Position numbers: made by a program. Below are positions 58,201 through 61,200 of a DNA stretch of 64,000 bases, piece after piece (position 1 is the stretch's first letter; every line of letters begins with the position of its first letter). The DNA lies in the NCBI RefSeq assembly GCF_055900595.2, contig NZ_CM148325.1; one strand, 5' to 3'.

Positions 58201-61200
58201 TTACCGTCGAGTGTCAGCGTCTGTTTGCCTTCCTCTACGACGGTGCCGACACCAGTTGGCGTGAGAAAACCACCAAGTCCAGCTCCACCACAGCGAATTT
58301 GCTCAATCAATGTACCTTGCGGTACGAGAACGACCTCCATTTCGCCAGAAATCATGCGCCGTCCGGTTTCCGGGTTGGTGCCGATATGTGAAGCAATTAC
58401 TTTGCGGACTCGACCATTGACGATGAGCGGACCGATGCCGGTATCAACAAACGCGGTATCATTGGCTATCAATGTCAGGTCGCGAACGCCAGATTCCAGT
58501 AATGCTTCCACCAGGCGGGATGGAGTGCCAATTCCCATAAATCCGCCCACCATGATGGTCATGCCGTCACGAAAGAAGCCGGAGGCGTCTTGTAATGTCA
58601 TCAATTTTGTTTTCATTATTTATCCCTCTTGCATACACCGTTGTGGGTACAGTCAGGGAATAGCAAGGGGAGTGCCAGAATGAAAATGTTTGATATTGTT
58701 TTTTAACTCATTGAATAGTAAAGAATAAATAAGGTAGGGATTAAGAGGTTGAATGAACGGCTATGCAGAAATTTGCGCACTGTGCAAATTTCTGCATAGC
58801 AAGTTTTGGTGTTATACATCCGCCGGATCGATACCGTATTCCTGGAGTTTATACATCAATGCCCGGCGACTAATACCTAGCATTAAAGCAGTGCGGGTTC
58901 GGTTTCCTTCTTGTTGTTCCAGCACTTCCATAATGATGCGTTTTTCGACGCGTTTTATTTCCTCTTTTAAATTACGCTCACCGGCAGGAGCTGTTTTTGC
59001 CTCACCGACATTACAGACTGGCTGACGAATCTGCGGCGGAAGGTCTTCAGAAAAAATGATCGGGCCTGAGTTCATCACGACGGCGCGTTCAATGACGTTG
59101 GAAAGTTCTCGAATATTACCCGGCCATGACCAGGCGGTAAGCAGCGACATTGCCATCGGATCGATGTCGATAATATCGCGCTGATTCTCACTACTGAATT
59201 TTTGCAAAAAGTGATTAGCTAACAGGGAAATATCTTCCCGACGATCGCGCAGAGGCGGCAGTATTAAATGAATAACGTTAAGGCGATAAAAGAGATCTTC
59301 ACGGAAGGTGCCTTCTTTTACCATTGCCTGCAAGTCACGGTTGGTGGCTGCAATGATGCGGATATCAACTTTTATGGTCTGATGACCGCCAATCCGTTCA
59401 AATTCCCGTTCCTGCAGAATGCGTAGTAATTTGGCTTGCAGTACCAGCGGCATTTCGCCAATTTCGTCAAGGAGCAGAGTACCTTCGTTGGCACGTTCAA
59501 ATAATCCCTGACGTAGGGTTTGTGCACCAGTAAATGCGCCTTTTTCATGACCAAACAGTTCACTTTCGAGCAACGATTCCGGCAGTGCCGCGCAGTTGAC
59601 TTTAATGAACGGCCCCTTTGCCCGCCGCGAATTGTAGTGAATCGCTCTGGCAATCAACTCTTTCCCGGTGCCGCTTTCACCGCTAATCAAGACGCTGGCC
59701 TGAGAAAGGGCAATTTTGGCGGTGTCTTTGCAGATGTCCATCATCGCCGGGCTGTTGGTGATAATGTGCCCCCATTGCCAGCTGGTGCTAAGTGCCTGGT
59801 GCAGATGACGGATCTCTTTTTTCATTGACTGGAGTTGTAAAGCGCGCTGAACGATTAAATTCAACTCATCGAGATCAAACGGTTTGATAACATAGTCGAA
59901 GGCTCCGCAGCGTAGTGCTTCGACGGCGGTTTCCACTTCAGCATAGGCCGTCATCAGAATAACGGGTGTCCGTGTCTCATGGCTGCGCATCTCCTTTAGT
60001 GCCTTGATGCCGTCCATCTCTGGCATGCGGATATCCATCAACACCACGTCAGGGTGAATATCGGCAAACAGGTGTAATGCTGTGCGCCCGTTGTTCGCAC
60101 AATGTGTTTCGAATCCTTGTAGTGCAAAAGCGGTGCTCAGCATACGGCGAACATTATCTTCATCATCCACAATAAGGATGCGATTAATAGCAGTCATACA
60201 GTCTGATTTCCCTGCGGGTTGATCGGTAAAATAAGCGTGAAGGTTGCGCCGTAGCCCGGCAAACTGGCGACGCGAATATCACCCTGATGGGCATTAATGA
60301 TGCGTTGACTTAACGCCAGACCAAGCCCGGTTCCTGAGGCTTTGGTAGTGAAAAAGGGATCGAAGATCTTTTTTTGCAGCGAGAGATCAATGCCACTCCC
60401 GTTGTCCTCTATCGAAATGGCCTGTTGTGAGTCGCTATACTGCCAGGTTCGAATGCGAATTTTCCCTCGTGCACTGATAGCCTGGACGGCATTGATCAGG
60501 ATATTCAGTAGTACCTGTTTGAGCAGTTCACGATCGGCGTTAATCGGGCTTAATTCATTATCCAGTTCGCTTATGAAGTCGACCCGCGCTTGTACGCCGG
60601 CGGTTTGTACCAGTACCAGAGTTTCTTCAACCAATGCATTGAGGCTGACTTGTTGCCATTGACTGTGGCGTGGGCGTGAAAATTCGAGCAATTGCTGAAT
60701 AACTTTGTTAATTGAATCGATTTCTTTGAGTACTACGGACAGATATTCCTGATGTATTGGGTCACTGGTTTGTTGGCGCAAGATCTGTACATAACCACGA
60801 ATAGCCGTTAACGGATTACGTACTTCATGCGCCACGCCAGCCATCAGCTCACCCAGTGTGGCGAGGCGTTCTGCTTGCGCCATGCGGCGCTGGGTTTCTT
60901 TGCGGGCAGTTAAATCAGAGAAAATCACCAAAGCACCTATCATTTCACCGTGCGTGTTATGAATACGACTGGTAGTGACACTGAGTTCAATGGTGCGGTC
61001 ACGGCCTGGAAAACTGATCTCCAGCGCCACATGTTCGGTGCCATGTTCCAGCGTATCCAGTACTGGACTGTAGAACTGAGTATTGTCGAACAACATGGAG
61101 TAAGGCTGCCCTACCAGTTCATGACGTTGATAGCCAGTGATGACTTCTGCTGCCGGGTTCATGGTGGTTACATCACCCTGGCGGTCAATGGCAATGACGC

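Follow-up and report, generated by a model that had tools for sequence, protein, structure and literature searches.

The atoC–atoD intergenic region of an Escherichia coli chromosome as the known sigma-54 control region of atoDAEB

The ato locus and its intergenic gap

The 195-bp stretch at 58617..58811 is exactly the atoC–atoD intergenic gap of the window, the 64,000-nucleotide stretch of DNA analysed here (RefSeq assembly GCF_055900595.2, contig NZ_CM148325.1). Both flanking genes are on the minus strand, where the gene order is atoS, atoC, the 195-bp gap, atoD, and then atoA, atoE, and atoB. The stop codon of atoC (TAA, 58814..58812) and the start codon of atoD (ATG, 58616..58614) bound the gap. 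Read from 58811 to 58617, it is the published control region for acetoacetate utilisation by atoDAEB on an Escherichia coli chromosome, and as such is ordinary and already known. The ato genes and their boundaries in matching (identical or near-identical) E. coli RefSeq records agree with those in the window. The original prediction had recommended the control region as an internal check on gene starts and operon direction; used in this way, it confirmed the direction and start of atoD and the end of atoC. The ato locus overall is about 96-97% identical to that of K-12, with patches at 83-89%.

The three genes nearest the gap were assigned by open reading frame, Pfam match, and RefSeq name. 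The atoD gene (57954..58616, minus strand), gene 1 of atoDAEB, encodes the acetate CoA-transferase alpha subunit (Pfam CoA_trans). The atoS gene (60194..62032, minus strand) encodes a sensor histidine kinase with PAS, HisKA, and HATPase_c domains, and a HAMP match under the curated cut-off; its longest open reading frame begins with GTG at 62032, and the RefSeq-equivalent ATG is at about 62020. The atoC gene (58812..60197, minus strand) encodes a response regulator and bacterial enhancer-binding protein of 461 amino acids. Pfam analysis of AtoC showed Response_reg (residues 7-115), Sigma54_activat (145-311, E = 8e-76), AAA_lid_14, and HTH_8 (415-454) domains, and the translation contains both a Walker A motif (GESGTGKE) and EKGAFTGA, which includes the GAFTGA loop motif. 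Judged from its translation, AtoC is an intact activator with a receiver, a sigma-54 AAA+ domain, and a Fis-type HTH, encoded immediately upstream of the promoter described below.

The sigma-54 promoter and the atoD leader

A TGGCAC-N5-TTGCT element had been predicted on the minus strand, about 45-60 bp upstream of atoD. The sequence TGGCACTCCCCTTGCT at 58677..58662 (minus strand) matches it with no mismatch, and its 3' and 5' ends are 45 and 61 nt from the ATG, respectively. The -24 GG (58676-58675) and the -12 GC (58664-58663) are exactly ten bases apart. When both strands of the 64 kb were searched for TGGCAC-N5-TTGCW, this was the single exact match; the other five matches have one mismatch each. 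By our own arithmetic, such an exact core with 11 specified bases is expected about 0.06 times per 128 kb of random sequence.

A sigma-54 position weight matrix (PWM) was built from 134 ChIP-seq motif instances (Bonocora et al. 2015, PMC4591121), with the atoD site left out. A PWM scan had been suggested along with the original prediction, the lack of a significant sigma-54 site being the refuting outcome. The scan did return a site here: the 17-mer CTGGCACTCCCCTTGCT (58662..58678, minus strand), which contains the exact consensus, scored 12.93 bits and ranked fifth among 127,968 window positions. This score is moderate, at the 25th percentile among true sites, because a C-rich TCCCC separates the two perfect core elements at -24 and -12. 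The PSSM value of the atoD site is also low (9.39) in the list of the ChIP-seq authors themselves (Bonocora et al. 2015, PMC4591121). The motif score by itself is therefore weak and not decisive; the context makes the site convincing.

The 17-mer is identical to the K-12 sigma-54 ChIP-seq site OS21, upstream of atoD. EcoCyc flags OS21 as an experimentally confirmed promoter, and its start is predicted 35 nt ahead of the gene (Bonocora et al. 2015, PMC4591121). Genomic SELEX with the RpoN holoenzyme also gave a peak within the atoC/atoD spacer of E. coli K-12. Occupancy of the window site by the sigma-54 holoenzyme is predicted from the identical K-12 17-mer.

A different reading is that the sigma-54-like motif and the upstream palindrome are both chance occurrences without a part in regulation, and that atoD is transcribed by polymerases reading through from atoSC or starting at an unrecognised sigma-70 promoter. 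In first-order Markov simulations, scores this high occurred about 5 times per random 64 kb, which would fit this reading, but for one strand of a 195-bp spacer the expected number is only 0.008. Many of the sites bound by sigma-54 in E. coli are also reported as transcriptionally uncertain (Bonocora et al. 2015, PMC4591121). Against a sigma-70 promoter, the promoter scan found no sigma-70-like site on the atoD strand of the 195-bp gap. The further evidence that bears on chance comes from the palindrome and its conservation, and is given with them.

For the sigma-54 promoter, the transcription start can be predicted by the rule that places it 19 bp past the motif centre, here 58670 (Bonocora et al. 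2015, PMC4591121). Applied to this centre, the rule gives a start at 58651, thus 35 nt before the ATG, and the same distance is found in the K-12 table (Bonocora et al. 2015, PMC4591121). The corresponding atoD 5' leader (58617..58650, minus strand) contains a Shine-Dalgarno sequence, GAGGG, at 58628..58624. If the AtoC footprint reported at -146..-107 is applied instead, the start would presumably be at 58653-58654, at most 3 nt from the rule-based position. From the rule and these footprint coordinates, the exact start is predicted at about 58651-58654 on the minus strand.

Between the -12 element and the ATG (58617..58661), the length is invariant, and the identity of Escherichia with Citrobacter is 0.81-0.87, versus 0.67 at the end of the atoC reading frame. 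No significant RNA structure was found in the atoD 5' leader. One candidate, a conserved hairpin at 58649..58634 with its variable sites in the loop and a bulge, was rejected: its folding energy is -3.8 kcal/mol (z = +0.79), and its six core pairs are all invariant and thus without covariation support. The Rfam scan of the whole 64 kb gave zero families at the gathering score.

Several other sigma-54-like sequences were found in the window. The top PWM score belongs to ATGGCACTGAATATGCT (18079..18095, plus strand), which was in the PWM training set; it is identical to the published intragenic sigma-54 ChIP-seq site IS27 in yfaY, and the gene was confirmed as yfaY. Two others match "low-stringency" sigma-54 ChIP sites in Table S2 of Bonocora et al. 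(PMC4591121): GCGGTACGCAAAATGCA (63297..63313, minus strand), which is antisense in rcsC and faces atoS, and GGGCACGCGCCTTGCT (35480..35495, plus strand), which is antisense in nrdA. A further high-scoring motif at 62559..62575 (plus strand) was first taken as intergenic; it was dropped because the atoS-rcsC gap of K-12 is only 166 bp, which places the motif inside rcsC.

The AtoC palindrome, the spacer, and their conservation

A 41-bp near-perfect palindrome with 17-bp arms had been predicted about 100 bp further upstream of the promoter element. It was found at 58760..58800 as GCTATGCAGAAATTTGCACA-G-TGCGCAAATTTCTGCATAGC, consisting of a distal arm (58800..58781), one central base (58780), and a proximal arm (58779..58760). 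The arms are better given as 20 nt each, 95% complementary with one invariant A·C mismatch; the outer 17 bp pair perfectly. The predicted distance is also about right: the palindrome edge is 82 bp from TGGCAC, and the two centres are about 110 bp apart. Relative to the predicted transcription start, the palindrome is at about -149..-109. Among the local inverted repeats of the 64-kb window it ranks first, and the runners-up are at most 83% complementary. By our own arithmetic, the probability that 64 kb would contain a perfect inverted repeat of 17 bp is about 1e-5 or lower.

The palindrome is identical to the AtoC site of K-12 MG1655 at 40 of 41 positions. Matta et al. (2007) reportedly placed the AtoC footprint at -146..-107 from the start site. 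The comparison with published AtoC binding that had been proposed as a check also came out in favour of an AtoC site, as judged from a later summary of the earlier footprinting and ChIP results. In that summary, the site is described as an experimentally verified inverted palindrome of 40 bp, with two arms of 20 bp each, located upstream of atoDAEB, which governs both AtoC binding and acetoacetate inducibility (Pilalis et al. 2011, PMC3118216). The same work gives a half-site at -184..-165 from the RefSeq-annotated atoD start, taken there as the transcription start (Pilalis et al. 2011, PMC3118216); the distal arm at 58800..58781 is at exactly -184..-165 from the atoD start of the window. Both arms also fit consensus motifs 1 and 2 of that work, GCkATrCrrnnATTTrCwCA and GnGnAAnTTyCTGCAwAGCC (PMC3118216). 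Roles of the window palindrome in binding phosphorylated AtoC and in acetoacetate induction are predicted from the K-12 literature.

Each arm contains TGCA-N6-TGCR, a pair of tetramers that are each self-complementary and are spaced by one turn of the helix; this suggests that one AtoC dimer probably binds each 20-bp arm. No further AtoC half-site was found in the window beyond the two arms; three matches with 3 mismatches are at chance level. An imperfect palindrome with TTTTTGCAAAAA is present inside atoC (59191..59218). It has a vague likeness to AAATTTGCA, the core sequence of the AtoC arms, probably by chance.

Conservation was analysed with an AtoC scan of species-representative genomes, which gave at least six orthologous loci with atoD downstream, one from a divergent Escherichia and five from Citrobacter. 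These six loci were aligned with the window and K-12, making eight loci. Averaged over all pairs of loci, identity is 0.91 in the palindrome, 0.81 in the -24/-12 17-mer, and 0.87 in the 5' leader; in two spacer segments it is 0.48 and 0.51. Every one of the eight loci has TGGCA and CTTGC unchanged. The palindrome and TGGCA are 123-126 bp apart, and the -12 element and the ATG are separated by 45 nt in every locus. In the palindrome, 31 of the 41 columns are invariant and the flanks are scrambled. Two palindrome positions have changed symmetrically on both arms: one from G-C to A-T in the divergent Escherichia, the other between A-T and T-A when Escherichia is compared with Citrobacter. The A·C mismatch beside the centre is kept in all sequences compared.

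The symmetric changes keep the pairing, and would also be expected if the palindrome acted mainly at the RNA level, as a stem-loop that terminates or stabilises the atoSC transcript, instead of or besides being a protein-binding site. The palindrome starts 11 nt past the atoC stop codon, and its transcript folds with -29.4 kcal/mol (z = -5.5), both of which are in line with such a role. However, the palindrome is followed on the atoC sense strand by CCGTTCATTC, without a T-run, and the terminator scan flags the opposite orientation only; an intrinsic terminator of atoSC was rejected on this ground, although the stem folds well. In Citrobacter, the bases downstream of the palindrome are C-rich. 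Moreover, the invariant columns and scrambled flanks show that the primary sequence is conserved and not the pairing alone, the A·C mismatch has been retained throughout, and published work assigns AtoC binding to the palindrome (Pilalis et al. 2011, PMC3118216). A mainly RNA-level function is considered highly improbable, and a role exclusively at the RNA level is very unlikely. A dual role was also considered, in which the palindrome would be an AtoC site in the DNA and, in the RNA, a hairpin that might fix or shield the 3' end of the atoSC message and keep read-through from reaching atoDAEB. Independently of this, the two spacer alleles described below might give different strengths of induction. 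These ideas are offered as speculation, and we regard them as rather unlikely.

The reading of the palindrome as an AtoC enhancer also has to be weighed against chance. Both elements occur together in the right order, orientation, and spacing, and the neighbouring gene encodes a sigma-54 activator. Both are kept between genera, whereas the DNA in between is not, and there are K-12 binding data for identical or near-identical sequences. Chance origin was excluded because of this combination of position, conservation, and published binding data, and the probability left to this alternative as a whole, with atoD expressed by read-through or from an unrecognised promoter, is practically negligible.

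Between the enhancer and the promoter lies the looping spacer (58679..58759, minus strand), 81 bp long with 74% A+T. Compared with K-12, it has substitutions at 21 of 81 positions (26%) and no indels, versus 3 substitutions in the other 114 intergenic bases. The spacer length is 81-84 bp in the eight loci, and the sequence is free to vary. Within E. coli, the spacer occurs as two sharply different alleles: the window type is found in 17 of 5,426 complete genomes, and the K-12 type in about 3,900. The strains with this rare allele are the same strains that are closest to the window over 1..25000 (the men/arn/yfaV region). Over that region the best identity is at most 98.3% among the complete E. 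coli genomes in the collection, and therefore the lineage of the source strain is poorly represented among complete genomes.

The sole conserved stretch in the spacer is an island, ATTCAAnnnnTTA, with an IHF-like core, ATTCAATGAGTTA, at 58704..58716 (minus strand). The core has one mismatch to WATCAANNNNTTR, the IHF consensus, to which the spacer contains no exact match. Relative to the predicted start, the island has its midpoint near -59 and begins at -64..-66 in all eight loci; an A/T-rich tract flanks it on the 5' side. One-mismatch IHF matches are common in A/T-rich DNA; two others in the spacer (58695..58683 and 58754..58742) were set aside, as they are conserved neither in K-12 nor in Citrobacter. 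IHF is reportedly required at the atoDAEB promoter (Matta et al. 2007); a search for literature joining atoDAEB with IHF gave nothing useful. Position and conservation suggest that the island is a probable IHF site.

Proposed activation and relation to known promoters

Taken together, the region at 58617..58811 is, with near certainty, the atoDAEB control region, in which a bacterial enhancer serves a classical sigma-54 promoter. The enhancer arrangement bound by AtoC, as originally proposed, is borne out by the identity with K-12 (the whole 17-mer and 40 of 41 palindrome positions), the conservation, the spacing, and the intact atoC gene. The following mechanism may be proposed. Sigma-54 RNA polymerase would bind the -24/-12 element as a closed complex, which is unable to open alone. 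Acetoacetate would be sensed by AtoS, leading to phosphorylation of AtoC. About 110 bp upstream of the promoter, phosphorylated AtoC would then assemble and oligomerise on the 41-bp palindrome, with each arm likely taking one dimer. The 81-bp spacer, rich in A+T, might bend, probably with IHF at ATTCAAnnnnTTA near -59, so that AtoC meets the polymerase. ATP hydrolysis by the AAA+ domain of AtoC, acting via the GAFTGA loop, would open the promoter, and atoD, atoA, atoE, and atoB would be transcribed from about 58651-58654, some 35 nt before the ATG. From its sequence features, the acetoacetate-inducible switch is apparently intact in this strain.

The control region is the same as the K-12 atoDAEB promoter in its flanking genes, the 195-bp gap, the sigma-54 17-mer, the half-site at -184..-165, and the spacing between the -12 element and the ATG. 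It differs from K-12 in the spacer substitutions given above, and the palindrome symmetry is slightly higher in the window (19 of 20 pairs, versus 18 of 20 in K-12). Several features are also shared with the NtrC-dependent glnAp2 and other IHF-using sigma-54 promoters such as nifH and Pu, as known from textbooks. These include an enhancer 100-150 bp upstream of the -24/-12 element, an activator of the receiver, AAA+, and Fis-HTH type, dyad sites containing TGCA, and an A/T-rich intervening segment with an IHF-like site near -60. However, the signal differs, being acetoacetate via AtoS, and atoDAEB has a single 40-bp composite palindrome instead of two separated 17-bp NtrC sites. IHF at the exact position of the island is a prediction for atoDAEB.

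For this chromosome, the region adds little beyond annotation quality. It also indicates that consensus or PWM scoring alone under-rates the genuine atoD sigma-54 promoter, owing to the C-rich spacer between its -24 and -12 elements. The second natural spacer allele might be of interest to engineers whose acetoacetate biosensors are based on the ato promoter. Across Escherichia and Citrobacter, the ato control region is a clean example of phylogenetic footprinting, in which the sites and their spacings stay constant and the looping DNA is free to change.
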